From IMG/VR virus record IMGVR_UViG_3300045988_155520, positions 128,001-192,000 of that record: a DNA stretch of 64,000 nucleotides; one strand, given 5' to 3'. This DNA is from a virus. The position numbers were made by a program, and so were the translations under genes. This document shows, piece by piece, positions 986-49,872 of this stretch. The notes under the pieces were generated by a model. It had not been told where the DNA came from and made no database searches. It worked only from the letters and a program-made list of their open reading frames with translations. How positions within the stretch are numbered: the stretch's first letter is position 1; each line of letters opens with the position of its first letter.

Positions 986-1276
986 TTGTATATTCAAATG
1001 AAGATAGTTAAAATAAATGAATCTCAGTTTGAAAAGTTATTTGAAACAAGTTCATTCGTTCAAACTGCTGGTGAAAGTAATTTAAGTCTGCCTGGTGCTG
1101 AACAAGCAGCCACTTCACCTAATGCAGCAATCATACATGATATAGACGGAAATGAAATAAATCAAGGACAAACTGATGATGAGTTAGCGCAACCGATAAC
1201 AGGTAAAAAGATTTCTAACACAATGTCAAGTTCTCAAAAATTTGGCTATGTTGGAAGTAATGGAAGGGGATTATAA
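986..1276 (+). CDS. hypothetical protein
   Basis: Track ORF. The likely start is the second Met (998), giving MKIVKINESQFEKLFE, a weak form of the recurrent N-terminal module. It heads a same-strand gene string. Confidence 0.5.
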   Translation: MYIQMKIVKINESQFEKLFETSSFVQTAGESNLSLPGAEQAATSPNAAIIHDIDGNEINQGQTDDELAQPITGKKISNTMSSSQKFGYVGSNGRGL

Positions 1277-1278
1277 GT

Positions 1279-1836
1279 ATGCCTATTTTTATTTATGAAG
1301 ACAGACAGGAAGTACAAAATAAAGTAAGTGTTCTGCCTGCTGATTTTATGAAAGAGAGATTTAAAACAGCAGCTCTTAATAAAGATTATCTTGAAACTGT
1401 TCCTGGTGGTAAGGTCTTGAAAGGACAAATTTCTAAGACCCAATATAACACTAAAGGTTCTACATCAGATAGTAAGAATGGTAAAGAAAAGAAATCATCT
1501 GTTGGTGTTATTCAACATAGCCGTTTAAAGGGTATTGTTCATGCTATGGAACAGGTACCACGTAATTCAAAAAGTTTTGAATTATATGGCGGTGAGAAAG
1601 GTCTTGAGATATACAGGAATTTACTTAGTAAAAACAGGTCCGTTCCATCGGTTAATTCTGTTAAGCAAGTTAAACCTGCGTCTGCATCATCTTCAACTAA
1701 GCCATCTTCTGTTAATATAAAATCTGATACTACTCCAGATGGAGGAAGTGTTTCTTTTTTAAAGAACGAATCACGTAAAACAATTTTTATTAATGGAAAA
1801 CAATTAAATATATTAAAAGAAAATAGAAATGTATAA
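1279..1836 (+). CDS. hypothetical protein
   Basis: Track ORF starting 3 nt after the preceding stop. The C-terminus ...NESRKTIFINGKQLNILKENRNV carries the recurrent module. Confidence 0.55.
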   Translation: MPIFIYEDRQEVQNKVSVLPADFMKERFKTAALNKDYLETVPGGKVLKGQISKTQYNTKGSTSDSKNGKEKKSSVGVIQHSRLKGIVHAMEQVPRNSKSFELYGGEKGLEIYRNLLSKNRSVPSVNSVKQVKPASASSSTKPSSVNIKSDTTPDGGSVSFLKNESRKTIFINGKQLNILKENRNV

Positions 1837-2005
1837 AAATGGTCAAACGTGTCTTGAGAAATTTGGTCTTGAGGCAAGAAAGGTTCATTTGCAAAGGAAT
1901 GATTGGGGTAATCCAGTTATGCCTTCTACAAAGAATAAAATAGAATACACTAAAGTTTTAGTAGATGCAGAATATGCAATACAAACCGACTTTAAAGTAG
2001 ATTAA
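1829..2005 (+). CDS. small hypothetical protein (58 aa, below track cutoff)
   Basis: Hand translation gives MYKNGQTCLEKFGLEARKVHLQRNDWGNPVMPSTKNKIEYTKVLVDAEYAIQTDFKVD*. It overlaps the previous stop by 8 nt and shares NGQTCLEKxGxExR with the N-terminus of the next ORF. Confidence 0.35.
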   Translation: MYKNGQTCLEKFGLEARKVHLQRNDWGNPVMPSTKNKIEYTKVLVDAEYAIQTDFKVD

Positions 2006-2047
2006 CTATTTATAAAGAAAATAATGATATTAAATTTTAAATAACAT

Positions 2048-2461
2048 ATGGCTACAACAGTTCAAAATGGACAAACATGTCTTGAAAAAAGAGGTATAGA
2101 AGAAAGACATAAAGAAATTACACGAAGTGATTATAACATTGAAGACCAGTACGGTCCAACACATAAAGATGCCTTAAGTGATGGCGACCCTCAAGGTAAA
2201 GGTACAGGTCATGGTGGTCATACTCATTATTTACCAGACTGTACAAAACCTACTGGTACTATAGACTATAGCAATTTTGATACAGACCATGGTGGTGGTC
2301 AATATGACATCGAAGGACGTAACAATATCAGCGGTCGTAAGAGAGCACTTGCTATCTCAATGTATAACAAAGAAAATATGTATGGTCCAACATTGGTTGA
2401 TACTTCTATTAATAGAAGCGATGGACAATATTTTGTAGGTCAGACTTTAAAACATTCGTAA
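2048..2461 (+). CDS. hypothetical protein (Gly/His-rich)
   Basis: Track ORF. N-terminus is MATTVQNGQTCLEKRGIEER. No family recognised. Confidence 0.55.
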   Translation: MATTVQNGQTCLEKRGIEERHKEITRSDYNIEDQYGPTHKDALSDGDPQGKGTGHGGHTHYLPDCTKPTGTIDYSNFDTDHGGGQYDIEGRNNISGRKRALAISMYNKENMYGPTLVDTSINRSDGQYFVGQTLKHS

Positions 2462-2464
2462 TAG

Positions 2465-3385
2465 ATGAATCTGAATTTATATGAAATATTGAAGAATGTG
2501 TTAAATGAGGGGGTTTCCACAAAGGCGGTTCGTAAGGTTTTAGATGGTTCTATTGATGGTGTAGATAGTAACGGAAAAGCTAAGAATGTAGATAAAAATG
2601 GCAACCTCTTCTATCACTATGTTCGTATAACATATGATGATACTTTAGATAATCCTCATTCTGATAAACTTCCAGAACCTGTAGGAAATAGACTTGGAGT
2701 CAGAATTATTCAACCTTATGCGTTGGGAGAATATATTTCAGTTAATTCTAAAACTGGTAAAAAGAAACGTAGAAAAGTTTTAAGAGCCTATCAAATAAGT
2801 CCAGAGAGTAGACGAGGAGGTCCACGTTGGGATTTATTCAGACTTGATAGAATTTTATCTTGGGAACCTATACTTTCTAAAACTTTCAGTTATCCTGCAG
2901 AGGGTTATAATGAAAATGGAGATAAAACTTTAAATAAGGTTGACGTACAAGTTAAATTTAGTAATTACGAACGAAATCCTGATGAATATACCCAAGCTAT
3001 CAATAGACCTGGTGCTATAAAACAACAGTCTCAAAGCGATATGCTTGCACCTAAAGTATCTAACGGTAATATAGGTCAGACAAATGTTTTGAATCAACGT
3101 AAAAGAGTTGCTGGTAAAACTTATAAGAATAGTAAACGTGATAACATGGTTGCTAAAAATATAGAACTTACTAAAACTCAAGATAGATTTGATAATTCTT
3201 TATGGGATAAAGCTAATTCTGAAAAGATGAAGCAAGATTATAACAATTGGAATAATAAGAATCAAAAAGTTAAATCTGGTCCAATTAAAAATAATGATGA
3301 GGAAGATATGGAAGCATGGCTTAACACACCTCATAATGATTTTGACAAAGATATTACTTCTTATAAAAAAAATGAATTTATATAA
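2465..3385 (+). CDS. hypothetical protein
   Basis: Track ORF that starts right after the double stop TAATAG of the previous gene. Confidence 0.6.
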   Translation: MNLNLYEILKNVLNEGVSTKAVRKVLDGSIDGVDSNGKAKNVDKNGNLFYHYVRITYDDTLDNPHSDKLPEPVGNRLGVRIIQPYALGEYISVNSKTGKKKRRKVLRAYQISPESRRGGPRWDLFRLDRILSWEPILSKTFSYPAEGYNENGDKTLNKVDVQVKFSNYERNPDEYTQAINRPGAIKQQSQSDMLAPKVSNGNIGQTNVLNQRKRVAGKTYKNSKRDNMVAKNIELTKTQDRFDNSLWDKANSEKMKQDYNNWNNKNQKVKSGPIKNNDEEDMEAWLNTPHNDFDKDITSYKKNEFI

Positions 3386-3396
3386 TATTACACATA

Positions 3397-4020
3397 ATGG
3401 ATGCAAGTAATTTAAAAAATGTTTTACAAAGAGCAAAACGTTTAACAGATATGGATGCAAGCGGACAAATCAATATGATTGCTGAAAATGCAAGAAATAG
3501 TGGTAAAATGAATTATAATGACACCGATGCAATTCCATCTGTTAATCAAACCAATTATCAGCCAGTTTATCAGAATTTCTCTGAGCCAAGAAGAAATTCA
3601 TCAATGCCAAAAGAAATATTGGAGTCTTTTAGAGATAACCCTATTAATGTTCCAGCTGGAGGTATGGGTGCTTCTTCTTCTGTTTTAGATGATTTGGGAA
3701 TAGTTACTGAAAATTTCCAACAGCCTGTTGTTCCTAAAGCACCTAAACGAGTTATTACTGAAAATAGCAATGTTCATCAACCTGTATATCAAGGTTCTTC
3801 TAACGTTGATTATTCACTTATCAAAGATATAGTTGAGAGTGCTGTGAAGAAATATATGGGTGCTTATATGAAAAAGATGATGAATGAAAATAAACAAAAT
3901 CTTTCATCAAATGATACTATAAAGGCAGTTCAATTTGGTGATAAATTTAGTTTTGTTACAGAGAGTGGTGATTTATATACAGCTTCTTTAGAATTTGTTA
4001 AAAATATAAAAAAGAAATAA
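3397..4020 (+). CDS. hypothetical protein
   Basis: Track ORF. It contains KRVITENS and LIKDIVESAVKKYM, the two halves of the recurrent module. A terminator hairpin follows. Confidence 0.6.
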   Translation: MDASNLKNVLQRAKRLTDMDASGQINMIAENARNSGKMNYNDTDAIPSVNQTNYQPVYQNFSEPRRNSSMPKEILESFRDNPINVPAGGMGASSSVLDDLGIVTENFQQPVVPKAPKRVITENSNVHQPVYQGSSNVDYSLIKDIVESAVKKYMGAYMKKMMNENKQNLSSNDTIKAVQFGDKFSFVTESGDLYTASLEFVKNIKKK

Positions 4021-6100: not shown

Positions 6101-6526
6101 TTATCGTAAATTTTTCTTTAAATTCTCTTTAATTATATTTGAAATTTGTTTGATAATTGCCTCGTCCATTGAGTGATAAGAGTTATAAATATCATCAATT
6201 TCCATTTTAGTTAAAGCACGTCCTAACTGTTTGGTTTTCTTATCAATTTCCTTATTTGCTTCACGTTCATGTTTATCAACAATAGAACTATTATCTCTAT
6301 TGGAATGAGTATTATTTTGATTTAAATATTCTCTACCTAAAAGTGCACCACCTAAAATAGTTCCACCAACTGCTGTTTGCAGTGCAAGTTTTCCAGTTTC
6401 TTTTCCAACTTTCTTTGCATTTTTCTTAAATTTATCCCATTTCTCACCTTCGTTGAGAATATCATAAACAGTATTTTCGATGAGCTGATGCAACTCTTCT
6501 TCTGTTAACTTAATAGTTTTTTTCAT
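6101..6526 (-). CDS. hypothetical protein with a strong N-terminal KLTE module and a glycine-zipper segment
   Basis: N-terminus is MKKTIKLTEEELHQLIENTVYDILNE. It also has LALQTAVGGTILGGALLG, a possible membrane or oligomerisation helix. Confidence 0.6.
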   Translation of the reverse strand: MKKTIKLTEEELHQLIENTVYDILNEGEKWDKFKKNAKKVGKETGKLALQTAVGGTILGGALLGREYLNQNNTHSNRDNSSIVDKHEREANKEIDKKTKQLGRALTKMEIDDIYNSYHSMDEAIIKQISNIIKENLKKNLR

Positions 6527-30030: not shown

Positions 30031-31440
30031 TTATACTCTACTTAATCTGTGCATTAAATCAAGAGATTCCAAAAGGTCTGCTGACTTATAAATTGGTGTC
30101 TCATTAATCTGCTTAGAACTTGTTGCACTGATATTAGCTGACTCTGTGATGTTCATCTTGTTAGCCTTTTTCAAGTTACGAGAAATATTCTCATACAAGT
30201 TCTTAGATTGTTCGATTGTTTTTGCCTCCTTGCCAAATCGTGCAATGATTTCCTTTTTCTCATCTTGAGATGTTGTATTTTCAGAAATCAACTTAATAAT
30301 TTGTCCAAGGTTGACATTTGTAACTGCTGCTTCCTGCAGAACTTTCTTGAACTTAACAAGAGTTTTCTTAAGTTCTTTATTCTCGTTGAAAATCTTATTA
30401 GCTTTACGAATAATTGATTCGTTAGTTTCACGAGATTCAGATTCTGCGCTGTAACGTGGTACAACAGTACCTTTACCAGAGTTACGAGCTTTTCTACCAC
30501 TTGAATTTGGTACGTGAGATTTAGAAGTTGAATTTTGCTGAACGAACCCACCTACGTTTGTAGCTTCCTCAATATCATCAGCATAAATTTCAAAAATTGT
30601 TTCATCTTTTGACTTCTTGCATCCCTCTGCAAATGGTTGATTCTCTGATTTACTATTCTTCTTACCAGACCAAGGTTTCTCTGAACCTTTAGATTTCAGT
30701 CCCTCAGAACCCCAATCTTTAGAATCCTTTTCATCTGCGACAGGAAGACCTTTAGTATCAAGTACATCATTCTTCTGGTAATTGTCAGTGTAACCTGCAT
30801 GTGAATCATACTCATTTAAAGCAAGTTCATAGATAGTTTCATTTGACTCATTTACACCAGATTCATTACCCATGTCAATAAGGTATTCAGCGCCAGTCTC
30901 ATTATCTTTCAGACTAACCTTGTTATCATCACCCTTATTAACCATAACCTGGTCATCGTCAGACAGCAATTTGTAAACTTTTACGATTTCATCGTCATCC
31001 GCTTCTGAGAAGTCATACTCATCATCTCCGACCTTATACTTTTCAAATGATGCCCATTCGTCACCATCTTCATCTGTACCGTTTTCAACTTTCTCAACCT
31101 CATCACCAGCACCCTCTGGTGTTACAGTAACATCTACAGTTGTATCGTCATCATCGGTATCAGAAGAACTTTCTGTGTCATCTTCAACTTGAGTTTCCTC
31201 AGTATCAGAATCATCCTCAGCATCATCTGCTGCCAGAGCTGCAGTATCTTCCACTTCCTCTTTATCATACTCATCCTCATCTTCCTCAGCGAGGATTCTT
31301 GCGTATGTATCACGTACTGTTTCAGAAAGAATATCCTTCACAGCATTTTCCGTATTTTCTTTCAGAGTTTGTGCAAGATTGTTATAACTCTCTAAAGAGT
31401 CTTTAACAGCTTTGCCTCTAATGTTATTAGTTTTCTTCAT
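30031..31440 (-). CDS. acidic scaffold-like (gp22-position) protein
   Basis: 469 aa with very Asp/Glu-rich N-terminal and central regions. It lies immediately upstream of the capsid gene, as gp22 does in T4. No sequence motif supports the call. Confidence 0.45.
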   Translation of the reverse strand: MKKTNNIRGKAVKDSLESYNNLAQTLKENTENAVKDILSETVRDTYARILAEEDEDEYDKEEVEDTAALAADDAEDDSDTEETQVEDDTESSSDTDDDDTTVDVTVTPEGAGDEVEKVENGTDEDGDEWASFEKYKVGDDEYDFSEADDDEIVKVYKLLSDDDQVMVNKGDDNKVSLKDNETGAEYLIDMGNESGVNESNETIYELALNEYDSHAGYTDNYQKNDVLDTKGLPVADEKDSKDWGSEGLKSKGSEKPWSGKKNSKSENQPFAEGCKKSKDETIFEIYADDIEEATNVGGFVQQNSTSKSHVPNSSGRKARNSGKGTVVPRYSAESESRETNESIIRKANKIFNENKELKKTLVKFKKVLQEAAVTNVNLGQIIKLISENTTSQDEKKEIIARFGKEAKTIEQSKNLYENISRNLKKANKMNITESANISATSSKQINETPIYKSADLLESLDLMHRLSRV

Positions 31441-32905: not shown

Positions 32906-33622
32906 ATGAATAAGAAGACAGAATTAGTTGAAATTAAAAAAGACAAAACAGGAACAGGTCTATTGATAGAACAAGATGGTTTTGTACAATTAAATAAAAA
33001 AGATTTCACAAAAACAGTTAATGAAAGTAAAGACGGAAATGAATGGCATTGTCCTTATCCTTTCATTGTAGATGCTGTATTTCAAAAATATGACATCAAG
33101 AATGCTAATGGAAGAATTTATCCAGAAAAGGTGCTAAAGAAACAAGTGGAAATCTACCAGAAAAAAATAGAAGAACATCGTGCATATGGAGAATGTAATC
33201 ACCCTACTGAAAGTACTATCGACCTTGGTCGTATATCTCATAATATTATAGAACTACATTGGGAAGGTCATACTCTTGTAGGAAAGATGGAGTTAAATAT
33301 AACTGAGGGTTTCCGTAGACATGGTATGTGTACATCTTTTGGTGATACTATAGCAAATATGTTACTTAATGGTTATAAACTTGGCGTATCATCAAGAGGT
33401 GTTGGTTCTGTTGAGGAAAAACTTGGTCAATACATTGTTGGAGATGATTTTGAATTGATTTGTTGGGATGTTGTTTCAGACCCTTCAACACCTATGGCAT
33501 ATATTTCTACAGACGGTCCTGAAGGATTAGAGACTTATATTGAAAGTAAAAATAATAATCCTCTCAATAAAAAGATTGTTTCAGAAAAGATTAATAGAAT
33601 TAATAAAATTTTATCAGAGTAA
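32906..33622 (+). CDS. prohead core protease, T4 gp21 family
   Basis: NANGRIYPEKVLKKQV, GECNHP (catalytic His context), GVSSRGVGS (catalytic Ser context) and WDVVSDPSTPMAY parallel T4 gp21 as recalled. The gene is on the opposite strand to the rest of the head genes. Confidence 0.85.
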   Translation: MNKKTELVEIKKDKTGTGLLIEQDGFVQLNKKDFTKTVNESKDGNEWHCPYPFIVDAVFQKYDIKNANGRIYPEKVLKKQVEIYQKKIEEHRAYGECNHPTESTIDLGRISHNIIELHWEGHTLVGKMELNITEGFRRHGMCTSFGDTIANMLLNGYKLGVSSRGVGSVEEKLGQYIVGDDFELICWDVVSDPSTPMAYISTDGPEGLETYIESKNNNPLNKKIVSEKINRINKILSE

Positions 33623-33625: not shown

Positions 33626-34306
33626 ATGAAAAAAATTGTTTTAACTGAAAATCAATTATCTAATCTTTCTAAACATATTTTGCAAGAAAGAACTTTCGAA
33701 GATATGTATTACGATTATACCGAAAATTTTGACGTAGAAAATGTATTTCAGAATTTCTTAGATAATCCTAATGGAGTACAGTCATGGACACCGCTGATTG
33801 ATGCAAATTCTTACAAACAAGCATTGCAAGAATTTACTAAATATGGACAATTTATTAACTTCCCAACAAAACTTCTTTATCAGTGGGTAGGAATTTTGTT
33901 AAGAAATACAATGCAGTTAGATTATAATACAATTTTAGCTGGTCATACACAATCTAATCCATATGTATATCTTTCTGAAGAATTTGATTATATGGTTGAA
34001 GAATTAGGTAAAACAGAATGTAATGGTGTTGATATTACAGATATCGGTGAACATAATATATATGATAAACTTGAGGAAATGGGTTTGTATGACTGGTTGA
34101 AGCTTCCCGATGGTTCTGATGCATGGAGTGATTTTGGTCTAAAACCTATTTACAATCATTTGAAAGAATATGATTCGTCAATGCCACCAGAGAAAGTTAT
34201 AGTTTTAATTAACAAAGTGCTGGATGTTTATCATCAAAGAGGTGACTTAGCTTCGGCATTTATTGAAGGTGGAAGAAGTACTTTAACACAAATTTCCAAC
34301 ACATAA
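33626..34306 (+). CDS. hypothetical protein with an N-terminal LTE module
   Basis: MKKIVLTENQLSNLSKHILQE start. Appears co-transcribed with the protease gene. Confidence 0.55.
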   Translation: MKKIVLTENQLSNLSKHILQERTFEDMYYDYTENFDVENVFQNFLDNPNGVQSWTPLIDANSYKQALQEFTKYGQFINFPTKLLYQWVGILLRNTMQLDYNTILAGHTQSNPYVYLSEEFDYMVEELGKTECNGVDITDIGEHNIYDKLEEMGLYDWLKLPDGSDAWSDFGLKPIYNHLKEYDSSMPPEKVIVLINKVLDVYHQRGDLASAFIEGGRSTLTQISNT

Positions 34307-34345: not shown

Positions 34346-34495
34346 TTATACTTCATTATCATCATCATCTCCAAATGGCTCGTAGTTATTTAAAACATCA
34401 TCAAAATTCTCATCATTTTCAATAACTTCTTTAACTACATTCTTAACCAAACTTTGTAAATCATCTTCGGTTAATTTAACTATTCTTTTTGTCAT
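34346..34495 (-). CDS. small acidic protein (49 aa) with a strong N-terminal KLTE module
   Basis: Hand translation gives MTKRIVKLTEDDLQSLVKNVVKEVIENDENFDDVLNNYEPFGDDDDNEV*. It is below the track cutoff. Confidence 0.5.
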   Translation of the reverse strand: MTKRIVKLTEDDLQSLVKNVVKEVIENDENFDDVLNNYEPFGDDDDNEV

Positions 34496-35992: not shown

Positions 35993-38650
35993 TTATTCAT
36001 TATCGTTCACTAAATTATCCAAAGAAGATATCATCTTATCAAATTCTTCATTAATCAATAAAGATTTATCATAGATATTTGCTCTTTCATAAGAAATTTC
36101 TTCAGCCTTCTTTTCCTTTCTATCAATACAATTAAGATATTCTTCAAATAGTGTATCTAATTTTTTATCACTATTTTTCTTCATCGCCTTTAATGTATTT
36201 TCAGTAATAAGAGGTTTTTTCTTATTTACAGATTCCATTGGAGTGCCTCCTGATTCTGGACCGCTACTTCCTGGTGCTTCGCCTCCTGGAGGTGCACCAG
36301 CATCACCACCCATGTCTCCTGTAGGCATTGAACCTTCTTCTCCTCCAATATCACCCATATCATCAGACCCAGGTGCACCGAGTGAATCAAGACCTCCACC
36401 GAAGTCTCCTCCGCCACCCATAGAGCCACCTCCCATGCCACTATCAGGACCTCCTTGTTGTGGTTGGTCATCCATGTATTCTGCTCCTGGTTCTCCATAT
36501 ATTCTATCGACTGTATCAAATAAACCAGTACGCTTGATGATTTGAGTTGTCTTTTCAAGTTCTGCGGAAATACCTTTCTCAAGACGTATCTCTTCAAGAT
36601 TTTCTTTAATCTCTTTGTCAGACCACTTCATAATAGTCTTTAATGCCTTTGCTTGAGACATAACAGGAATACCACCACCAGGGTCTGAAACGGCATCTCT
36701 AACAGCAGTAATCTTCTTCTCTATATTATCAATCTCAAGTGACTCTGCTTGAGTTGATGGGTTATTCATTGTAAGTGAGAAATTAGTTAATTCATCACTA
36801 AAACCAAGTAAGAATAAGTGAATGGATGCAACCTTAGTTAACTCCATTAAGAACGCCTGCTGAACTCTATTAACTGTTCTTGTGAAACGTATATCCATTA
36901 AAGCAAGATTCTTTCCGTCACCAGCAGTCTCTTCAAAATTAAGGAATGTTTTAGGTATTCTCAATGCCGTCAAAACCTTATTCTGAACAAACTTGATATC
37001 ATCCATCGCTGTCAAATTCTGCGCTGCTGACAAGGTATCAATAGGTGTTGGCGCATTCTGGTCTCTTACAGGGATAAAGATATCTTGGTCTACACAGTTG
37101 CTAACAAAACATCCATTTTCACACCAAGTTTTATCGGAATTGATTGAACGTATAGCAAAGTTGTGTCTATCTTCTTCACTATTAGGACCTTGTACGGTCA
37201 TACAATACACATCGTCTCCACCTATGATATCAACTTTTCTTATAAAGCGTAATTTCATAACTTCTACAGGGTCTGATTCGTTTTTACTTGAATCATTAAG
37301 AGTTACTTTTCTATATGATTTAGAAGAAATATCTAATACTCTATCGTAATCAGTATCATCTCTGTAGAAAGGCATTACACTTTCACCCACACTAACTTCA
37401 TCTGCTCTCTTCTTAGAACCATCACGCATTATGAGTTCGTGTTCACCAGCTAAATCTAAATATGTATCATCATCTAATGTTATACGATATAATTTATCTG
37501 CAGTGTAGTTTTTACCACACCAAACAACTTTTCCTGGTACAATTTTATGAGTATCATCTTGTACAGAATATACAAAATTTTCTTCACCATTTTCATACTC
37601 TTTTGCAAGATTCTCTATTGTTATAGTGCGTCCATCCAGCAAAGGAATTGGCGTATCTTTATGAACTGGGAGAATATTCTTTCTCAAATCCACTTGACCT
37701 GTCATTGGGTCAATAATAGGCGTTCTCTTAAAGTTATTAGCAATTTCTTCAACGTAAGCTGGTACATCAGCATCGTCAATAGCACCTACAAATATCTTAT
37801 ATACACGTCTTTCAATAGAACGTTCCAGACGATAGATAAGCATCATATCTTCCATTAAACTAAGCATACGCCAATGTCTACGAGCTGAATTTAAATAAGA
37901 AACGCCATAAGGAAGATACATAGAATTTGTTAACAGTCTAAAATGTGCAATCTGCCAATCTCTAAATGGAACTTGCGACTGGCTATCATCTAACCAGACA
38001 AATTTAGTAGACATATCAGAATTGGTATCTGTATTATTAGCTGCAACAGTGGAATATCCTGTTGAATATGGATTAGTAATACCGTTTTCTATACGTTCAA
38101 CATTAAATACAGGTAAACGTTTCCATCCTTTAACACCTAACTTATGGTCTATATCCAGCATCATATAATCATTTCCATATTTACACATGCCACGTATAAC
38201 CATTTGTGCTGTTAATTGTAAATTTAAACGATTAGTAAATAAATCTTCAAGAATACTTTTAACTCTATCTGATTTAGAATATACATTTACTATATTTCCT
38301 GTATCTGAAGGTAAACAGCTTTCTTCTGAAACAATATCAAGTGCAGCGCCTATTTCTGGAAATGAATCCATCAAATCGGCATCACGATACATCAACTTAA
38401 CATTATTAAGTCCTGAATAGGCACTTACATTTAAATCAACGTTAGCTTTAACCCATCTATTTTCAAGATATTTATTTTGTTGTAATTCTAATTTTACTTT
38501 TTCATAATTATCTTTATCGTTGGTTTGGTATATAACACCATTACCAGACATATCATAGTTATTGATATGTCTTGCCATTGTGTCCTGTGTATTCCAGTTA
38601 CCAGTTATAGCTTTATCTAATTGTTGAAAAACAGTTAATTTATTGGCCAT
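35993..38650 (-). CDS. portal protein, T4 gp20 family, with an inserted mini-intein and a Gly/Asp/Pro-rich C-terminal extension
   Basis: SYLNSARRHWRMLSLMEDMMLIYRLERSIERRVYKIFVG...DQDIFIPVRD...LTALRIPKTFL matches the gp20 pattern. aa 328..518 form a Hint domain. aa 729..803 or so are low-complexity G/D/P. Confidence 0.85.
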   Translation of the reverse strand: MANKLTVFQQLDKAITGNWNTQDTMARHINNYDMSGNGVIYQTNDKDNYEKVKLELQQNKYLENRWVKANVDLNVSAYSGLNNVKLMYRDADLMDSFPEIGAALDIVSEESCLPSDTGNIVNVYSKSDRVKSILEDLFTNRLNLQLTAQMVIRGMCKYGNDYMMLDIDHKLGVKGWKRLPVFNVERIENGITNPYSTGYSTVAANNTDTNSDMSTKFVWLDDSQSQVPFRDWQIAHFRLLTNSMYLPYGVSYLNSARRHWRMLSLMEDMMLIYRLERSIERRVYKIFVGAIDDADVPAYVEEIANNFKRTPIIDPMTGQVDLRKNILPVHKDTPIPLLDGRTITIENLAKEYENGEENFVYSVQDDTHKIVPGKVVWCGKNYTADKLYRITLDDDTYLDLAGEHELIMRDGSKKRADEVSVGESVMPFYRDDTDYDRVLDISSKSYRKVTLNDSSKNESDPVEVMKLRFIRKVDIIGGDDVYCMTVQGPNSEEDRHNFAIRSINSDKTWCENGCFVSNCVDQDIFIPVRDQNAPTPIDTLSAAQNLTAMDDIKFVQNKVLTALRIPKTFLNFEETAGDGKNLALMDIRFTRTVNRVQQAFLMELTKVASIHLFLLGFSDELTNFSLTMNNPSTQAESLEIDNIEKKITAVRDAVSDPGGGIPVMSQAKALKTIMKWSDKEIKENLEEIRLEKGISAELEKTTQIIKRTGLFDTVDRIYGEPGAEYMDDQPQQGGPDSGMGGGSMGGGGDFGGGLDSLGAPGSDDMGDIGGEEGSMPTGDMGGDAGAPPGGEAPGSSGPESGGTPMESVNKKKPLITENTLKAMKKNSDKKLDTLFEEYLNCIDRKEKKAEEISYERANIYDKSLLINEEFDKMISSLDNLVNDNE
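37097..37669 (-). mobile_element. mini-intein (Hint domain, no endonuclease domain) in the portal gene
   Basis: Block A-like PVHKDTPIPLLDGRTITIENL; block B-like LDLAGEHELIM; block F DDVYCMTVQG..RHNFAI; block G NGCFVSN followed by +1 Cys (CVDQDIF). Confidence 0.7.
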
Positions 38651-40583: not shown

Positions 40584-40588
40584 AATAA

Positions 40589-41830
40589 TTATATTTCTTT
40601 ATCATCTTCTATAACACCGCTTTCATTTTCCTCACTATCAATATTAAATGTATCAAGTTCAGCAGGTGAAAAATAACTATCATTTATAACATAAATATCA
40701 GATTGCTTGGTATCTATATCTTTTTTAAATCTTTGATAATCAATATTATGCAATACAGAATCTGTTAAACTATTAATATATCTTCTACCAAGTTTAGTCG
40801 GTGTAAGAATTTCTTTCATAATTTTATTAAACTCTTCAGGCGTATTTTCACATAATTTCATGAAAATGAAAGGAACTACGTCAGTATCATATCCATTCAT
40901 TAATGAATATAATTTATCCCATAAACCAACACCAAGTCGCATGTCCCATGGTTCAGCTTTGATAAAATCAGCTTTGCGTAAAATATAATTTGCTTTCTTT
41001 CTATCTTTTGGCAAACCATGTGAAGATACGAGTTCAAAAATTCCACGTATAGTTTCACGTAAAAGTAAAGGGAAATTAAGTGCTTGAACTGTTATAATAG
41101 GTCTTTCTGACTTTCCGCCTAATTTAACAGAAACATAAGAACCTTGATTTGTATTACCGTCTATTATTTTATCGTTTTTAACAAATGCCAGATAATCACC
41201 TAAATCCATTAATTCTTTATATAGAGTAATTAACTCTTCATCAATATTATCAAAATAATCATCTGATATAAAACTTAAATTAGATAACCTAATACTTGCA
41301 CCTTGAATTAATGAATCAATAACTCTTCTTTTAGATATTTCATTATCTATTTTATCTTTTTCTAATACATCCTCAAACTCATATTTATTATCCTCATCAT
41401 CCTCTTCAGGGGTTAATCTTGCATTTTCTGAATCAACCTTATCAACTATATTTAACGAAAAATTAATAGAGTTTTTAGGAATAGAGAATAAATCACAAAC
41501 AATATTATGACATACTTTTTCTAAATGATTACGTAAAGGTTCTTCTAAATCTCTAATTTTCAATAAACATTTAATAGCTCTATCTGATAACACATCAATA
41601 TCATTAATATTATAACCATATTTTTGAAGTGTATCAGAAACATCATTAAAACGTTTTTTAGCTATAATATAATCAAATGGATATATATCATCAGAAGGAA
41701 ATACAGCATTATTACCTAAAGATGTCTTATGTGAAGAAAGTGCTTTATATAAAAAAGATGGTAATTTACTTATAACCCTTTTCTTAATAACATTAATTTT
41801 ATCTTCTGTTAAATATATTCGTTTTATCAT
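40589..41830 (-). CDS. hypothetical protein upstream of the terminase gene
   Basis: 413-aa ORF with MIKRIYLTEDKINVIKKRV at the N-terminus (module). It overlaps the upstream gene by 4 nt. Confidence 0.55.
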   Translation of the reverse strand: MIKRIYLTEDKINVIKKRVISKLPSFLYKALSSHKTSLGNNAVFPSDDIYPFDYIIAKKRFNDVSDTLQKYGYNINDIDVLSDRAIKCLLKIRDLEEPLRNHLEKVCHNIVCDLFSIPKNSINFSLNIVDKVDSENARLTPEEDDEDNKYEFEDVLEKDKIDNEISKRRVIDSLIQGASIRLSNLSFISDDYFDNIDEELITLYKELMDLGDYLAFVKNDKIIDGNTNQGSYVSVKLGGKSERPIITVQALNFPLLLRETIRGIFELVSSHGLPKDRKKANYILRKADFIKAEPWDMRLGVGLWDKLYSLMNGYDTDVVPFIFMKLCENTPEEFNKIMKEILTPTKLGRRYINSLTDSVLHNIDYQRFKKDIDTKQSDIYVINDSYFSPAELDTFNIDSEENESGVIEDDKEI

Positions 41831-42443: not shown

Positions 42444-43013
42444 TTAAAAAGGTGACGAAAAAGGATTTTCATCATCAATATACGTCTTATCTAATTTCTT
42501 CTCTTGACGTGTATATTTTCTTTCGTCATTAACGTTGAAATATTCTTGTAGTGTTTCGGCAATGAGATTATCTATATAATTTCTTGATTCCATTGTCATA
42601 TCATCATTATCACCCTCTGGTGTTTCCTCATTATCATTATTTTCATCTTCATCAGACTTTTTATCATCACCACTTTTCATCTTCTCAGACCACTTATCAA
42701 CGTCATCGTCACCAACATTTTCATTCTTACCTACCGCTGGGGCTAACATACCCATGACATAATCCACAGTTTCCTCTGAAGCATCTGGCAAAATATAGCT
42801 TAACTCACCAGCAGCCTTTTGCGCTTTATTATCAACACCATTAGAGTCTGGTGCATTTGCTTCATCATTATCATCTGTTGGATTATCACCTCCGTTTACG
42901 TCATCAGACATAGGGTCACTACCCATATCAAACCCACTTGGCTCATTCATCTGTGGCGGAATAGGCGATGGTGCTGGCTGCGGATTTAGGTCAGCAGCCA
43001 TACGACCAGGCAA
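42444..43013 (-). CDS. acidic low-complexity protein
   Basis: 189 aa, Asp/Glu/Asn-rich. It contains TMESRNYIDNLIAETLQEY. Confidence 0.55.
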   Translation of the reverse strand: MPGRMAADLNPQPAPSPIPPQMNEPSGFDMGSDPMSDDVNGGDNPTDDNDEANAPDSNGVDNKAQKAAGELSYILPDASEETVDYVMGMLAPAVGKNENVGDDDVDKWSEKMKSGDDKKSDEDENNDNEETPEGDNDDMTMESRNYIDNLIAETLQEYFNVNDERKYTRQEKKLDKTYIDDENPFSSPF

Positions 43014-43029
43014 CTTTAGTTTAGTTGGT

Positions 43030-44736
43030 CTACTTTCGTTTAGATTTTTTTTTTAAATTGCGTAGATTTCTACGAATTGATTCAGCGATTGAATTTTCAA
43101 CTGTTTTTACATCTAAATCAAATGGTGCGCCACTACCGATATTAGTTGCATATGGTGTGTCATTTTTAGCAGACTCATCATTCATGTCATAATATCCATC
43201 AAACTCTTGATGATTTTTATTTGGCGTAGTCATAGGCTGCTTTCTGAAGCATGGATGCTTACCAAATTCATCAAGTGCATTCATATTACCATTAGGTACA
43301 CGATTAGCATTAGAGAAAGGTTTCATACCGCCTTCATTCATACGACGTTTCGCTTTCTTAAATGCTCTTGATTCAAAAATCTGATAACCTTTACGATTTC
43401 TTGATTCCATAGGCATTTCATCTTCCTCTTTCTCGTCATCTTCAATACCGTCGCCAAACTCATCCTCAGATTCATCATCATCTGAATATAAGTCATCATC
43501 GTCTTCAAACTCTTCAGTATCAAAGTCATTAGTGTCAATACCTAATTTCTGTGCGATTTGTTCAAGAGTATCTTCCATTGCTTCTACACGTGCAGACAAG
43601 TCATCTTCATCAAACTCATCTTCGTCATCCCCGAAGTCATCATCATCCTCGAAGTCGTCTTCGTCATTCTCGGCATCAATAGCCTCGTCACCAAGTGTAT
43701 CGTCTTCTATACCTTCATCACCCATAGTGTCATCAGCATCGTCCATGACATCATCAGTATTTTCTAAATCAGTATCAACTTCATTATCTTCAACATCCTC
43801 AGAATTTTCAGGATTTTCATCAGGAATTTCATCAAGTCCCTCATTTACATTGGTTTCCTTGTCAAAAGGAGCTGAATCACCAACTTTATTAACACCTACG
43901 TTAGGTGTATTCTGATTCTCAGCATCATGCATAGCAACTCCCTCTTCAACTGTTTCCTCATCAAAAGGTGCTGAACTACCAACCTCGGTACCATGAGATT
44001 TATCCATATATGTATCAGCCATGTTGCCCTTTGCATCCTGACCTTCCTGATGCCAAGCTAAAGGTTCAGCAGACTCTTTAACTGCCTTGTAATCATTTGC
44101 ATCTTTAGCCTTACCTGTCTGGTGCTTAGATTTACGGAAACTATTCTTTGGATTAGCATCCTTTAAGTTCTCATAACCCTCAACATCAGCTGATTTTGAA
44201 GCATCTTCACCCTTGCACTCTTTTGAACCACAAACACCACATGAGTTATCACTCTCCATAGTCATTGACTGAGGTTTAGATTCATTAATACAAGCAGCAT
44301 TATACATAATCTGACGTTCACGAAGAATCTCCTTACGCATTTTCTCAGTTGATTCAAGAGTAAGGTTTTCTTTCTTGTCAGGATTCCAAGACTCAATCAT
44401 GATATTCTTACCATTTGCATATGCCTCACGAATTGACATCATTTTAAGTTCAAAATTCTTCTGTGCAGCAGCAAAACTTGAATATTCGTTATCTTTTCTG
44501 TTTTTAAAACCACCAATATAGTTGAAGTCCTCTTTTACTAAAGTCTTCTTGTTAGGTGCTGTTTCAATGTAATACTTAGAACCTTCTCTAATAATTCCAT
44601 ATACATTTCCATCTGCACCAAGTTTCTGATACTCAATAGAAGAGTATGTATTATTCTTAGATTCTGTCTGAAGACCATAATTCATCAAACCTTTCATTCG
44701 AGAAAGCTGGTCATTGACATTTACCTTTTTATTCAT
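43030..44736 (-). CDS. large acidic protein with poly-D/E tracts and three G(S/D)(S/G)APFD repeats
   Basis: 568 aa with GSSAPFDEE, GDSAPFDKE and GSGAPFDLD. A long D/E block is followed by PMESRNRKGYQIFESRAFKK. The C-terminus is VENSIAESIRRNL. Confidence 0.6.
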   Translation of the reverse strand: MNKKVNVNDQLSRMKGLMNYGLQTESKNNTYSSIEYQKLGADGNVYGIIREGSKYYIETAPNKKTLVKEDFNYIGGFKNRKDNEYSSFAAAQKNFELKMMSIREAYANGKNIMIESWNPDKKENLTLESTEKMRKEILRERQIMYNAACINESKPQSMTMESDNSCGVCGSKECKGEDASKSADVEGYENLKDANPKNSFRKSKHQTGKAKDANDYKAVKESAEPLAWHQEGQDAKGNMADTYMDKSHGTEVGSSAPFDEETVEEGVAMHDAENQNTPNVGVNKVGDSAPFDKETNVNEGLDEIPDENPENSEDVEDNEVDTDLENTDDVMDDADDTMGDEGIEDDTLGDEAIDAENDEDDFEDDDDFGDDEDEFDEDDLSARVEAMEDTLEQIAQKLGIDTNDFDTEEFEDDDDLYSDDDESEDEFGDGIEDDEKEEDEMPMESRNRKGYQIFESRAFKKAKRRMNEGGMKPFSNANRVPNGNMNALDEFGKHPCFRKQPMTTPNKNHQEFDGYYDMNDESAKNDTPYATNIGSGAPFDLDVKTVENSIAESIRRNLRNLKKKSKRK

Positions 44737-44811
44737 AATTGATATAATAATTGATTGATTATTTTAATATAAATATCTTTATCAAATAAAAAATAATTGA
44801 TAATAAAGATA

Positions 44812-46292: not shown

Positions 46293-46321
46293 GTTTAATA
46301 CTTTTTTTAATAAATAGGTTA

Positions 46322-46356
46322 TAAAATAAAAAAGCACTGCTATTTAGCGGTGCTTT
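46322..46356 (-). terminator. hairpin with T-run inside the minus-strand operon
   Basis: On the minus strand, aaagcaccgc-taaata-gcagtgcttt (one G.U pair) is followed by TTTTATTTT. It overlaps the stop of 46340..46924. Confidence 0.5.
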
Positions 46357-48000: not shown

Positions 48001-48211
48001 TATCTCTATTTTTATTTAATATTACATCTGCAAACTTAGAAGGGTATAATTGAGGATGAATGATTTTTTGATAATATTTAAACTCTTTCTTAATATCATC
48101 AAATCCTGTAACGTAAGTAATTTTATCAGCAGGTATCCGCCTACTAACCCCGTTTCCTAAATCGACGTATAATAATACATCTTCGCTATTTTCATTTGTC
48201 TTGTGGCTCAT
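47993..48211 (-). CDS. hypothetical protein
   Basis: Track ORF overlapping both neighbours in the operon. Confidence 0.45.
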   Translation of the reverse strand: MSHKTNENSEDVLLYVDLGNGVSRRIPADKITYVTGFDDIKKEFKYYQKIIHPQLYPSKFADVILNKNRDNE

Positions 48212-48926
48212 GTTTAATTCTTTTTTCCAACCATGTTTTAATTTTATTCAATGTTTCAAACGTATCTTTGTCAATTAAAATACCAACAGAATCTGGTTTA
48301 AACTTTTCAAATTTTTCATTACACTCATTAACGATATAAGACAAATTTTGTAAATCGTTAGGAGTAAACAAAAAATTCGTTAATTGTATTTCTTCTTCTC
48401 TAATCTGTATTCCTGATTCTGCAGCATCAATATAATCTGATTTTAGTTCTGCTGTTATAACACCTTTATTACCATTCAATAAATTATAAACATACGCATT
48501 CATCATTGAAAAATTACCGATGAATTGTCCTTTACTTAAACTATGTTTAAAGCAATGTTCCAAAGTACGTTCTTCAATCAAATCAATCCACTCCGTCCAC
48601 TTATTATCTATTTCTTGAATCTGTTTTGCTGGTTTGTGTGCCATTACAAAATTTTCGACAAATTCATTTCTACGAGAACGTTCTGGATAAAATAGATTAA
48701 AATCAACGCCACGTGAGTTTAATTCTTCACATATTGCAGGATGAGAAGAAATCAAAACAATATCAGTTTTATCTACAATTGATAAAACATAATCTACATA
48801 ATTGTCTGGAAACCCATCTGAATCATAATCAGAAACTTTAACGTTTTCAACTGTTATTCCATCACGACAATTCGTTTTCAAATATCGTCTTCCACAACCA
48901 GGAAAACCACTAACAATAACCCCCAT
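48192..48926 (-). CDS. P-loop kinase-like protein with a degenerate Walker A
   Basis: The N-terminus VIVSGFPGCGRRYL resembles GxPGxGK(S/T), but Lys-Ser/Thr is replaced by Arg-Arg. Confidence 0.4.
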   Translation of the reverse strand: MGVIVSGFPGCGRRYLKTNCRDGITVENVKVSDYDSDGFPDNYVDYVLSIVDKTDIVLISSHPAICEELNSRGVDFNLFYPERSRRNEFVENFVMAHKPAKQIQEIDNKWTEWIDLIEERTLEHCFKHSLSKGQFIGNFSMMNAYVYNLLNGNKGVITAELKSDYIDAAESGIQIREEEIQLTNFLFTPNDLQNLSYIVNECNEKFEKFKPDSVGILIDKDTFETLNKIKTWLEKRIKHEPQDK

Positions 48927-48929
48927 ATA

Positions 48930-49379
48930 CTACAACTTTTTAATTTTAACTCCTACTGATAATAAAATGTCATTAATCATCTCGTATGTATCAGTGTCTA
49001 AAGTTTTATCCAACTCATACAAAATTATACCTGCATGGTCCTTAATTGTAAACTTATCATTATTATCCATGTACATACCATTATTTGAACGGTAGATATA
49101 TTCTTCGTTAATAACATCTACGTTAACATCCTCTAAACGGTTACATGTATATTTTTTAATATACGAATTAAGTGCCTTACCTTGCGAATCACCATCTCTA
49201 AAGAACAAGTAATCTCTTACATCAACATCATTATATTGATACTGTCTACCATTTGAGAAAACGACCTTTAAAGTCTTAGGTTTATTGTCATTATCAATAC
49301 ACTCAGAATATAATATATTAGAACTCTTATACCATGTTCTATCTATATTATCACTATAAACATTAAGTAATTTACTCAT
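48930..49379 (-). CDS. KTSC-domain protein
   Basis: LKVVFSNGRQYQYNDVDVRDYLFFRDGDSQGKALNSYIKK matches the KTSC pattern (L.V.F..G..Y.Y.dV....y......S.G). Confidence 0.55.
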   Translation of the reverse strand: MSKLLNVYSDNIDRTWYKSSNILYSECIDNDNKPKTLKVVFSNGRQYQYNDVDVRDYLFFRDGDSQGKALNSYIKKYTCNRLEDVNVDVINEEYIYRSNNGMYMDNNDKFTIKDHAGIILYELDKTLDTDTYEMINDILLSVGVKIKKL

Positions 49380-49410
49380 ATTATCTATGTTTTAAAAATT
49401 AAACTTACTG

Positions 49411-49441
49411 CAAAGATACAATATTTTTAGAAAACAACAAA
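49411..49441 (-). promoter_or_regulatory. Bacteroidota-type promoter (TTTG-N19-TATCTTTG)
   Basis: On the minus strand, TTTG lies at 49441..49438 and TATCTTTG at 49418..49411, 31 nt upstream of the ATG at 49379. Confidence 0.6.
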
Positions 49442-49446
49442 ACGAA

Positions 49447-49481
49447 ATAAAAAAAGCTAACAAAAAAAAATTGTTAGCTTT
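49447..49481 (-). terminator. rho-independent terminator
   Basis: On the minus strand, aaagctaaca-T-rich loop-tgttagcttt is followed by a T-run. Confidence 0.6.
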
Positions 49482-49500
49482 AAATCTGATTGACTTTACC

Positions 49501-49872
49501 TTACTTAAATTTCTTGTACTGACGTTTCATACCACGACCCAAAGTATCAGCAGCGTCACGATAGTATTCACCATCATTCTCTCTATCACGGTAATACTGG
49601 TAATCCTCTTGGTCTTCCATACCCTGCTTGAAAGCGTGTCGTCTAAATAACTTATCGGCTACTTTCTTATCATCAGCTGCTGGGTCCTCTGGACGGTGAT
49701 TTTTAGCTGCCATAAAAGTATCCTTATCCTTATTTGCTTTAGCACGACCAGCTACACGACCAAGCATGTATTGACCCTTTTGTGTATCACCAATCTCAGT
49801 CAATGCTCTGCGTACGGAATTTTCTACAAGTCTATGAAGGTCACTTTCTGTAAGTCTTACAATTTTTTTCAT
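49501..49872 (-). CDS. hypothetical basic protein with a strong N-terminal KLTE module
   Basis: N-terminus is MKKIVRLTESDLHRLVENSVRRALTE. Confidence 0.6.
   Translation of the reverse strand: MKKIVRLTESDLHRLVENSVRRALTEIGDTQKGQYMLGRVAGRAKANKDKDTFMAAKNHRPEDPAADDKKVADKLFRRHAFKQGMEDQEDYQYYRDRENDGEYYRDAADTLGRGMKRQYKKFK

Follow-up and report, generated by a model that had tools for sequence, protein, structure and literature searches.

The T4 prohead protease gp21 cleaves after the Glu of an L/I-X-E| motif, and two T4 internal proteins, IPII and IPIII, carry the common leader MKTYQEFIAE|A (PMC9026906). In the T4 record, this shared MKTYQEFIAE is annotated as residues -10 to -1 of IPIII and IPII, and LTE|A is the cleavage site of gp23. 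The giant phages phiKZ, 201phi2-1, and SPN3US have N- and C-terminal propeptides on their head proteins that gp21-like proteases cut after Glu; N-terminal propeptides of 20-24 aa exist, there are several redundant sites per propeptide, and the protease itself bears a C-terminal propeptide (PMC10052503, PMC9026906). The giant-phage proteases prefer Ser at P1' (PMC10052503).

The stretch of viral DNA analyzed here (64,000 nucleotides; hereafter the window) belongs to a huge, T4-like phage, probably of Prevotella, with a T4-type head module comprising a gp23-like major capsid protein (MCP), a gp20-like portal, a gp21/S77 protease, and TerL. The assignment of a gp21-family prohead protease in a preliminary description is borne out by the gene at 32906..33622 (plus strand), which matches PF03420 at 1.2e-22 and phrog_207 at 1e-41. 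Self-cleavage may take place at TVNE|S (33014-33028, plus) and YIE|SKNN, the latter followed by the C-terminal helix KKIVSEKINRINKILSE (33530-33619, plus); orthologues keep (I/L)-x-E-(S/G) ahead of the catalytic domain and Y-(V/I)-E with INEKINKIKNIL at the C-terminus. The gp23-like MCP (27877-29901, minus) has a putative N-terminal propeptide boundary region, HLISE|ATAS...SGSFE|TVV (29680..29736, minus), that aligns with ...GSFLTE|AEIGG of T4 gp23 and in which L-(I/L)-x-E-(A/S/T)-T and SGSFET are invariant among orthologues. Candidate (I/L/V)-x-E-(S/G/A) motifs are found at the expected places in orthologues of both proteins.

Three minus-strand ORFs of the window contain a 26-aa module with the consensus MKKxIRLTESDLHRIVKESVxRxLNE, scoring 34-53 bits against a profile built from 242 copies on other contigs and none from the window. 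The strongest copy, MKKIVRLTESDLHRLVENSVRRALTE (49795..49872, minus; 53.3 bits; translation checked), forms residues 1-26 of ORF 49501-49872 (123 aa); a second conserved unit, IGDTxxGQYMLGRV, follows, and the AlphaFold2 model places a helix at residues 9-28, residues 1-8 being nonhelical. Residues 1-26 of ORF 6101-6526 (141 aa) are a second copy, MKKTIKLTEEELHQLIENTVYDILNE (6449..6526, minus; 33.6 bits; translation checked). The third, TKRIVKLTEDDLQSLVKNVVKEVIEN (34415..34492, minus; 38.1 bits), occupies residues 2-27 of the 49-aa ORF 34346-34495, which is the last of a gene run (portal, 34984, 34499, 34346) and faces the protease gene; its tail, conserved in the family alignment, is an invariant FDDVLNNYEPF followed by an acidic run.

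These three copies stand far above what chance would give, a concern left open in the preliminary description. With the same profile, 100 shuffled proteomes gave scores no higher than 7.3 bits, 0.02 matches of at least 6 bits are expected per proteome, and eight matches of at least 0 bits, the canonical copies among them, were observed in the window against 2.7 expected. Motifs of the form (I/L/V)-x-E are themselves frequent by chance, with L.E alone occurring 164 times in the window proteome.

At E <= 1e-3 the profile hits 7,656 clusters (50% identity), and at E <= 1e-10 it hits 1,326; no cultured phage carries the module by tblastn at E <= 1. About 85% of copies are N-terminal (149 of 177 matches at the loci, 554 of 677 instances overall); the internal copies make up about 15%, and many proteins have two to four modules. 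The tails are of at least 96 unrelated kinds, 188 of them falling into 96 clusters with no relation to one another, and Pfam domains are essentially absent from 115 module proteins. Each of residues 1-26 contributes 2-4 bits of information, a value that drops to less than 0.8 bits from residue 27 on. Conservation reaches 99% at L7, 96% at T8, 99% at E9, and 80% at S10; 95% of copies have I or L at residue 24 and 86% have E at residue 26, so that the conservation edge falls exactly after (I/L)-x-E. This boundary, together with S10, fits the gp21 L/I-X-E| rule and the P1' Ser preference of giant-phage proteases. Both AGY and TCN codons are used for Ser10, the DNA upstream of module genes is not conserved, and nucleotide identity between modules (0.65-0.66) is about that of the amino acids (0.63), with no excess within one genome. 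Judged from these comparisons, selection is on the protein and not on the DNA.

Every peptide quoted in the preliminary description was recovered where it had been placed, and 13 ORFs had been listed there; three of them, and at most six, qualify as leader-bearing. All claimed members other than the canonical three score no higher than 4.2 bits, within the noise range: those at 33626, 40589, 998, 4055, and 44812, the portal tail, and those at 1279, 42444, 43030, and 3397. Of five N-termini described as nearly identical, the three above are canonical, and those of 33626 and 40589 are degenerate. The core h-h-[LIV]-[TN]-E-x-x-h, an expression chosen after the data were seen, occurs six times at protein residues 4-8 and nowhere else in 20,068 aa. 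Because the core is confined to these residues, and because of the N-termini of orthologues, the weak N-terminal forms do not appear random; position and orthologues support reading the N-termini of the 998, 33626, and 40589 proteins as degenerate variants of the module.

The putative leader MKKIVLTENQLSNLSKHILQE (33626..33688, plus; 2.7 bits) begins the gene immediately 3' of the protease gene. Canonical modules begin the positional equivalents of this gene in five relatives (L117, L120, L092, L096, L125), and distant homologues of its product have module-like N-termini, MRIIINESQLD or ..LHHIIKEAIQTVLKE. The putative leader MIKRIYLTEDKINVIKKRVI (41771..41830, minus), which matches the core expression, begins a conserved 413-aa protein whose gene adjoins that of TerL. 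Its orthologues keep MKKIYINESxI or MKTIYINEN, although some clades are without the first 20 or so residues; AlphaFold2 models the protein with confidence (pLDDT 82) outside residues 1-19, and the only structural match is an uncharacterized phage protein. For MKIVKINESQFEKLFET (998..1048, plus; 3.3 bits), an INESQ variant that matches the expression and is also found on proteins at L054 and L136, the case for a degenerate leader is weak. It had been grouped with two other weaker forms, of which 44812-46050 is only suggestive and 4055-4777 is unsupported. The modules proposed within 3397-4020 and at the end of 1279-1836 score as profile noise and are likewise unsupported; the search for orthologues gave none for these two or for 4055-4777. 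Somewhat better than evenly, we favor regarding 4055, 44812, 3397, the 1279 C-terminus, and possibly 998 as chance amphipathic helices of an AT-rich, Lys/Glu/Asn-rich proteome, all being inside the shuffled-proteome range; such an explanation holds neither for the three canonical copies nor for the orthologue-conserved junction elements described below.

The portal, the scaffold, and two acidic proteins share a junction plan, kept in orthologues, in which an acidic or Gly-rich linker is followed by x-E-S and a basic amphipathic helix. In the portal, TPMESVNKKKPLITENTLKAMKKN (36173..36244, minus) comes after a Gly/Asp/Pro-rich linker and opens a C-terminal domain of about 80 aa; the motif x-(M/N/V/A)-E-(S/A)-(I/V)-N-K-K-x-P-L-I-(T/N)-E, preceded by a Gly/Asp-rich linker, is retained by orthologues whose identity ranges between 98% and about 42%. 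The acidic protein 42444-43001 has a junction and half-module, TMESRNYIDNLIAETLQEY (42540..42596, minus), kept in orthologues as PMES(R)xN and then h-x-x-I-I-x-E-x-h-N-x-h-L. In the acidic 568-aa protein 43030-44736, the junction PMESRNRKGYQIFESRAFKK (43354..43413, minus) corresponds to (P)ME(S/N)RR..G-V-Q-I-F-E-T downstream of a poly-acidic run in orthologues, and the C-terminal helix VENSIAESIRRNLRNLKKK (43045..43101, minus), in orthologues h-x-N-(A/S)-I-A-E-(S/A)-h-x-R-x-L-K-K-K, resembles module residues 13-26; its profile score in the window alone is not significant. The scaffold junction, TNES|IIRKANKIFNENKEL (30370..30426, minus), separates the acidic N-terminal half of ORF 30031-31440 from a conserved C-terminal helical domain, and orthologues keep x-(N/S/V)-E-(S/N)-h-h-+-+-A-N-K. 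Junctions in orthologues of 42444, 43030, and the scaffold lead into module-like helices. The protease C-tail resembles these junctions but is without the acidic or Gly-rich linker. The xES(R/V)N junction noted earlier is real and conserved in orthologues of the portal, 42444, and 43030; the module claimed in the same three proteins survives as junction elements kept in orthologues, but not as profile matches. Among all sequences collected, E-S lies within 12 residues upstream of 37% of internal modules, with a peak at -5, against a background of 5.4%. P3 at the junctions is P, T, or A and not L or I.

Module genes are concentrated between protease and portal, the site of T4 gene 67. In 16 protease-centered loci, the interval 0.35-3.5 kb downstream of the protease gene holds 24 of the 30 module genes, and 67 module-centered loci include a protease in 20, an MCP in 19, and a portal in 17, in a sample biased to the IGDT family and to protease surroundings. 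The leader of the window clade, RLTESDLH (45 N-terminal, 11 internal), that of clade C, MKIKLTExQ (nine and one), and that of clade D, MKxhIKKLLRE (eight and one), are almost never found across clades. By these sequence counts, leader type co-varies with head-gene lineage, distant T4-like clades using leaders of their own.

We consider it the most likely reading, with about an even chance of being right, that the module is a lineage-specific core-targeting propeptide analogous to the capsid-targeting sequence (CTS) of T4. The preliminary description had proposed a cargo set marked by one signal; we liken the module to the T4 CTS because it is N-terminal on unrelated proteins, ends at an (I/L)-x-E edge, clusters beside the protease gene, and varies with head lineage, but most of the ORFs originally listed drop out of the set. 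The propeptide would consist of a short extended KKxIR segment and an N-capped amphipathic helix, and would let fresh proteins dock on the scaffold core as the prohead assembles; the gp21-family protease would then remove it, with cuts behind the Glu of LTE|S, (I/V)KE|S, and (I/L)xE|. We infer that proteins so docked and cleaved may be packaged and injected; the cargo would be a large, fast-turning-over set of small, hydrophilic, often acidic proteins, serving as internal head cargo or core components, of which 34346-34495, the smallest member, would correspond to T4 gp67 in position and architecture. The portal tail, scaffold, and two acidic proteins would have a related arrangement of flexible acidic or Gly-rich linker, x-E|S, and basic amphipathic helix, the protease C-tail would offer a Y-I-E|S motif and terminal helix without the flexible linker, and multi-module proteins may be cut at E|S junctions like small polyproteins.

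The polar positions T8, E9, S10, D11, and H13 are conserved as strongly as the hydrophobic ones, pointing to a specific interface; such conservation would be superfluous in a simple degradable tag, and it counts against a capsid-targeting role. So do the greater length of the module than the T4 CTS, its internal and multiple copies, its absence from cultured phages by tblastn, the chance frequency of (I/L/V)-x-E, and the residues at P3 of the junctions. The polar conservation favors instead a generic helix for docking to, or recognition by, a noncapsid partner (a chaperone of phage or host, an AAA+ unfoldase or protease for which it would be an N-terminal recognition tag, or a hub protein), the (I/L)-x-E motifs being incidental to the amphipathic helix. 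Internal and multiple copies and the persistence of the module in host chromosomes agree with such a role, as does the divergent neighbor of 49501-49872, a ClpA/B-like ATPase gene (50008-52488; phrog_4871, 3.5e-197). We nevertheless think it unlikely, since Clp-like genes occur near only five of the 67 module-centered loci, about as expected at random, against 17-22 for head genes, and a generic helix predicts neither the strong protease-portal clustering nor the tracking of head-gene lineage by leader type.

The host copies lie in chromosomes of Prevotella and Segatella, with two cultured isolates among the carriers, as passenger genes of 2.5-2.8 kb IS1595-family elements amid ordinary host genes. 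A capsid signal has no obvious use there, which again counts against capsid targeting. In Prevotella genomes and some phage contigs, such an element holds the module gene between its inverted repeats, convergent with a PF12762/PF12760 transposase. Of 28 genome matches, 13 adjoin an IS1595 transposase (PF12762) or its remnant; 28 of 297 module genes overall have a transposase or remnant beside them, and inverted repeats enclose the module gene in four loci (L161, L176, L073, L177). The module might then be a functional N-terminal domain of IS1595 accessory proteins, perhaps a DNA-binding or transposase-interacting strand-helix unit, and the phage copies spread IS passengers; its N-terminus superficially recalls a ribbon-helix-helix (strand, helix, G-D-T turn, helix), but no such match was found in Pfam, a PDB sequence search, or Foldseek. 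This seems to us improbable: no transposase or remnant lies near about 90% of module genes or in the window, and for at least one passenger block the DNA is that of a phage, with 90% identity to a gene on a 280-kb phage contig. Between transposases that share 92% DNA identity the passengers are unrelated, and the passenger is therefore not a fixed IS function; the element is a vehicle of the module gene, not its function. That the module is a RiPP-like leader on a hypervariable core peptide, as many members of 30-77 aa with conserved leader and hypervariable remainder might suggest, is very improbable given tails depleted in Cys (x0.57), Ser (x0.82), and Thr (x0.70) and up to 200-350 aa long, annotated neighbors without maturase genes, and a location in the head-morphogenesis block.

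Among known systems, the giant-phage propeptides accord with the E-S junctions and with the module's three sites, but they have no single conserved sequence across unrelated proteins, and their motif is (S/A/G)-x-E. The 34346-34495 product recalls T4 gp67, a prohead core protein and precursor of acidic internal peptides, in being encoded between portal and protease and in combining a helix bearing (L/I/V)-x-E motifs with an acidic tail, although there is no detectable similarity (hhalign probability 1.7%) and the lengths differ (49 vs. 80 aa). The module differs from the T4 CTS in length (26 vs. 10 aa), in having no sequence similarity to that leader, in its three tandem candidate sites, in its thousands of cargo clusters against a handful, in its mostly acidic or hydrophilic tails against basic T4 internal proteins, and in having copies inside proteins and also on IS elements of host chromosomes. 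Both are nevertheless N-terminal leaders on otherwise unrelated proteins (IPI, IPII, and IPIII in T4, where gp21 removes the leader), with an M-K start, an (L/I)-x-E end, and diverse cargo of quick turnover (PMC3012670, PMC9026906), in phages that have in common a gp21-family protease, a T4-type scaffold, a gp20-like portal, and a gp23-like MCP.

The preliminary description had proposed a leader peptide common to many ORFs of the window, and every peptide that it quoted is present at its position. A profile of this 26-residue module was built from 242 copies on other contigs, and the window was compared with 100 shuffled proteomes, whose maximum score was 7.3 bits. Three ORFs, all on the minus strand, carry canonical copies that score 53.3 bits (49501–49872), 38.1 bits (34346–34495), and 33.6 bits (6101–6526), which rules out chance as their origin. 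Together with three degenerate copies (at 998, 33626, and 40589), they show one phage using the leader to open proteins that are otherwise unrelated. The wider membership first listed held up only in part: by profile, the other members scored at noise level, and we retain the conclusion that several of the weaker ones are chance matches. Gene calls followed a simple longest-ORF rule. The core h-h-[LIV]-[TN]-E-x-x-h recurs at residues 4–8 of the weak N-termini at 998, 33626, and 40589 and is found nowhere else in 20,068 amino acids, a post hoc count (as are all those based on regular expressions) with a pattern picked after the data had been seen. These degenerate leaders appear to be backed by orthologues: those of 40589 retain MKKIYINESxI or MKTIYINEN, although some clades lack the first ~20 residues, and the positional equivalents of 33626, directly 3' of the protease gene, begin with canonical modules.

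Across 259 unique copies, information content is 2–4 bits per position at residues 1–26 and below 0.8 bits from residue 27, with the consensus M-K-K-(I/L)-I-R-L-T-E-S-D-L-H-R-I-V-K-E-S-V-x-R-(I/V)-L-x-E. Conservation reaches 99% at L7, 96% at T8, and 99% at E9; I or L occupies residue 24 in 95% of copies, and E residue 26 in 86%. The leader therefore ends in a putative prohead-protease site, I/L24-x-E26, that matches the consensus (L/I)-x-E|, and the conserved residues give the module three candidate sites, LTE|S, (I/V)KE|S, and the terminal (I/L)xE|, all of the L/I-X-E| type at which gp21 cuts (PMC9026906). Giant-phage proteases favour a P1' serine (PMC10052503), which two of the three candidate sites have. 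AlphaFold2 predicts residues 1–8 as nonhelical, residues 9–28 as a helix, and a further helix at residues 31–46. A Foldseek search with this model returned nothing at E < 4, Pfam and PHROGs hold no known domain in module proteins, the PDB gave no match by sequence or fold, and a profile search of the PDB found designed repeat proteins only. In one large family the module is followed by a second unit, (N)EIGDTxxGQ(Y)MLGR, seen in the window from 49783–49794 onwards (residues 27–44 of the 49501–49872 product). This IGDT unit can also open proteins that lack a leading module, followed by ...ESKTM, the module, and a second domain (L041:4293–5279, L041:3588–4271, and L061:1209–1775, in related loci outside the window).

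The xES(R/V)(N/K) junction that had been described ahead of internal copies proved real and conserved. In portal orthologues spanning 98% to ~42% identity, x-(M/N/V/A)-E-(S/A)-(I/V)-N-K-K-x-P-L-I-(T/N)-E follows a Gly/Asp-rich linker. Orthologues likewise keep the junctions of two acidic proteins (PMESR.. in 42444 and (P)ME(S/N)RR..VQIFET in 43030) and of the scaffold (TNES|IIRKANK), each of which precedes a helix resembling half a module. Protease orthologues have (I/L)-x-E-(S/G) ahead of the catalytic domain and Y-(V/I)-E plus a helix at the C-terminus, and MCP orthologues have L-(I/L)-x-E-(A/S/T)-T and SGSFET, where T4 gp23 has GSFLTE|A. In multimodule proteins x-E-S-(K/R) lies ahead of 46 of 123 internal copies, against a background of 5.4%, with a peak at −5. 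We infer that the E-S junction is most plausibly a candidate site of maturation.

The window phage encodes a protease of the gp21/S77 type along with core and shell genes like those of T4: a gp23-like MCP (27877–29901, minus; PF07068, 4e-71), a putative acidic scaffold (30031–31440, minus), the protease (32906–33622, plus), a gp20-like portal with an intein (35993–38650, minus; PF07230), and a T4-like TerL (38703–40583). Matches to PF03420 (1.2e-22) and phrog_207 (1e-41) bear out the earlier assignment of the protease to the T4 gp21 family. Exact copies of window proteins occur in human-associated metagenomes, on contigs of 310–320 kb and larger, and are annotated at NCBI as "hypothetical protein."

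Several features of this block stand apart from the module. The window is AT-rich (~30% GC), with a locally higher GC of 0.40 over 28–32 kb. The MCP has 674 amino acids versus 521 in T4, and its Pfam match breaks into two parts, implying that the N-terminal half of the protein contains a large insertion; a large HNH/homing endonuclease gene directly adjoins it (26077–27789, minus; phrog_559, 5e-113). Between the scaffold and protease genes sits an inserted TnpB gene of the IS200/IS605 type (31533–32741, minus; OrfB_IS605, Cas12f-like TNB domain). Its DNA is 80% identical to that of Parabacteroides phage PF672P2 and gave the sole near-DNA match of the stretch 30000–50000 in the phage collection, in which no close cultured phage was found. 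The portal intein (PF14890) spans residues ~335–525; close relatives have an 885-amino-acid portal or a 694-amino-acid form without the intein, and those of other relatives (1,040–1,126 amino acids) probably contain a different insert. Adjoining TerL, the 413-amino-acid protein 40589–41830 (minus) is conserved in all T4-like clades sampled; its AlphaFold2 model is confident (pLDDT 82, pTM 0.81) and matched no solved structure, the only structural match being an uncharacterised phage protein in BFVD. A nucleotidyltransferase-like gene (44812–46050, minus; PF01909, weak; phrog_36119, 5e-39) lies in the leftward gene run with the head genes, and its homologues in relatives are fused into much longer proteins of up to 1,036 amino acids.

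Module genes gather at this block. Sixteen protease-centred 20-kb loci, picked without regard to the module, contain 30 module genes, of which 24 cluster 0.35–3.5 kb downstream of the protease gene, on the way to the portal gene, in the interval occupied in T4 by genes 67 and 68. Around module genes of other phages (67 module-centred loci), the commonest neighbour is a mobile HNH gene of the same family as the endonuclease beside the window's MCP gene, whose presence at 30 loci makes this family probably multicopy and mobile; next come the families of window ORFs 34499 and 34984 (22 each), the protease and TerL (20 each), the MCP and the scaffold (19 each), and the portal (17). Capsid targeting coupled to a protease signal is the best-supported reading of the module, and we give it roughly an even chance of being right; it draws entirely on sequence anatomy, gene position, the comparative pattern, and the precedents of T4 and giant phages. 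The module might instead be a docking or recognition helix unrelated to the capsid, which we think rather unlikely. A ClpA/ClpB-like AAA+ ATPase gene (50008–52488, plus; phrog_4871, 3.5e-197) is divergent from module gene 49501–49872 in the window, but at 5 of the 67 loci this neighbour is no more frequent than chance, and we rejected it as a module partner.

Module genes are not confined to genomes with the cognate head machinery. When 185,579 species genomes were scanned, 28 loci proved to carry the module. Almost all belong to Prevotella, Prevotellaceae, or Bacteroidales, an indication of the host; among them are loci of the isolates Segatella bryantii DSM 11371 and Prevotella sp. MA2016, with ordinary host genes around the module. 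An IS1595-family transposase gene (PF12762/PF12760), or what remains of one, is convergent with the module gene at 13 of the 28 loci. In four elements spanning 2.5–2.8 kb (L161:448–2980, L176:669–3305, L073:6887–9388, and L177:4701–7489) the module gene lies within the inverted repeats (~ GGCAATAACATAGAAGTTGACC); further elements were found at L160, L171, L174, L175, L157, L011, and L068. Such elements, with one or two passenger ORFs including the module-bearing gene, are present both on chromosomes of Prevotella and Segatella and on contigs of huge phages. These positions would suit an accessory domain associated with the insertion sequence, yet we regard that explanation as quite improbable: only 28 of 297 module genes overall adjoin a transposase or remnant, ~90% of phage copies do not, and the window has no IS1595-family transposase or inverted repeat. 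Transposases that are 92% DNA-identical nevertheless carry unrelated passengers, and one passenger block shares 90% identity with a gene on a phage contig of 280 kb. Phage DNA therefore appears to be picked up and carried by the elements, which gives module genes a route between phage and Prevotella genomes. Nor is the module an element-end sequence, since DNA similarity between elements is that of the transposase only and the inverted repeats lie upstream of the passenger block. Transposase 3' remnants of 26–51 amino acids lie beside many phage module genes.

Among 1.84 billion cluster representatives, 7,656 clusters match the profile at E <= 1e-3 and 1,326 at E <= 1e-10, and among the IMG/VR matches listed the phage contigs with the module reach 412 kb and bear several copies each. 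In related loci of up to 20 kb, a sample skewed to the IGDT family and to protease neighbourhoods, 149 of 177 matches (84%) begin within 5 residues of the first ATG, and 188 tails (the remainder of each protein) fall into 96 unrelated clusters, which rules out a paralogous family. The tails have essentially no Pfam domains; mostly acidic, they are rich in W/G/R/Q/P/D/Y and poor in I/L/V/C/S/T, and this depletion in C, S, and T, together with the head-gene neighbours, makes a RiPP precursor leader very improbable. Selection on the module acts at the protein level: nucleotide identity (0.65–0.66) is close to amino acid identity (0.63) and is not raised among copies of the same genome, the fraction of identical codons is 0.50 within versus 0.48 between genomes, Ser10 uses both AGY and TCN codons, and upstream DNA is not conserved. 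With no nucleotide conservation beyond the protein's need, a DNA-level repeat, gene conversion, a recombination handle, and a shared 5' UTR or cassette were all rejected. The T4 late promoter TATAAATA is not enriched as a shared expression signal (21 observed, 16.7 expected). A ribbon-helix-helix DNA-binding domain gained no support from Pfam (no RHH match at E <= 0.1), PDB profiles, or Foldseek (monomer model).

Capsid targeting could be one part of a broader scheme, unlikely as a whole, that joins a lineage-specific encapsidation code, IS1595 gene traffic, and host-encoded tagged cargo. The leader of each T4-like huge-phage lineage (RLTESDLHRIVKESV..., MKIKLTExQ..., or MKxhIKKLLRE...) would define its packaged and injected proteome, which in the Prevotella phage clade would have grown to thousands of protein families. 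IS1595-family elements would shuttle leader-tagged genes between phage and host chromosomes. Infecting phages could then load host-encoded tagged proteins into their capsids or cleave them with their protease, and these proteins might be Trojan-horse cargo or infection sensors. If the leader is truly a capsid-targeting propeptide, the internal and injected proteome of uncultivated huge phages, now dark matter of thousands of families without Pfam domains, would become readable from sequence. Its members would be likely first-contact effectors against host defences; IPI* of T4 acts against GmrSD. The leader would also serve as an existing tag with which to direct cargo into the capsids of Bacteroidota phages, and as a defined protease substrate. 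No cultured relative with the module was found among 50,697 phage records, and the searchable literature yielded no paper with the motif strings or describing such a leader in Prevotella or jumbo phages.

The canonical module is absent from distant T4-like phages with proteases 43–50% identical. One distant clade has MKIKLTExQ(F/Y/L)xR.. and another MK(S)(F)IKKLLRE.., each leading unrelated proteins encoded close to the protease (at loci built around distant protease homologues: L146–L152, L130–L131 and L139, L143, L149, L153–L156). The three leader types are almost always N-terminal and almost mutually exclusive between clades, leader type tracking head-gene clade. A signal co-evolving with core and protease would look like this, with leaders that are specific to each lineage and end in h-x-E. 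In T4, IPIII and IPII bear MKTYQEFIAE|A, annotated as residues −10 to −1. The 49-amino-acid product of 34346–34495, composed of the leader helix, an invariant FDDVLNNYEPF, and an acidic tail, shares its position and architecture with T4 gp67, but their sequences are not alike and no homology between them was detected. Between the module and the T4 capsid targeting sequence, too, no sequence homology was found; they have in common only the M-K start and the h-x-E end, and their resemblance is one of analogy, not homology.
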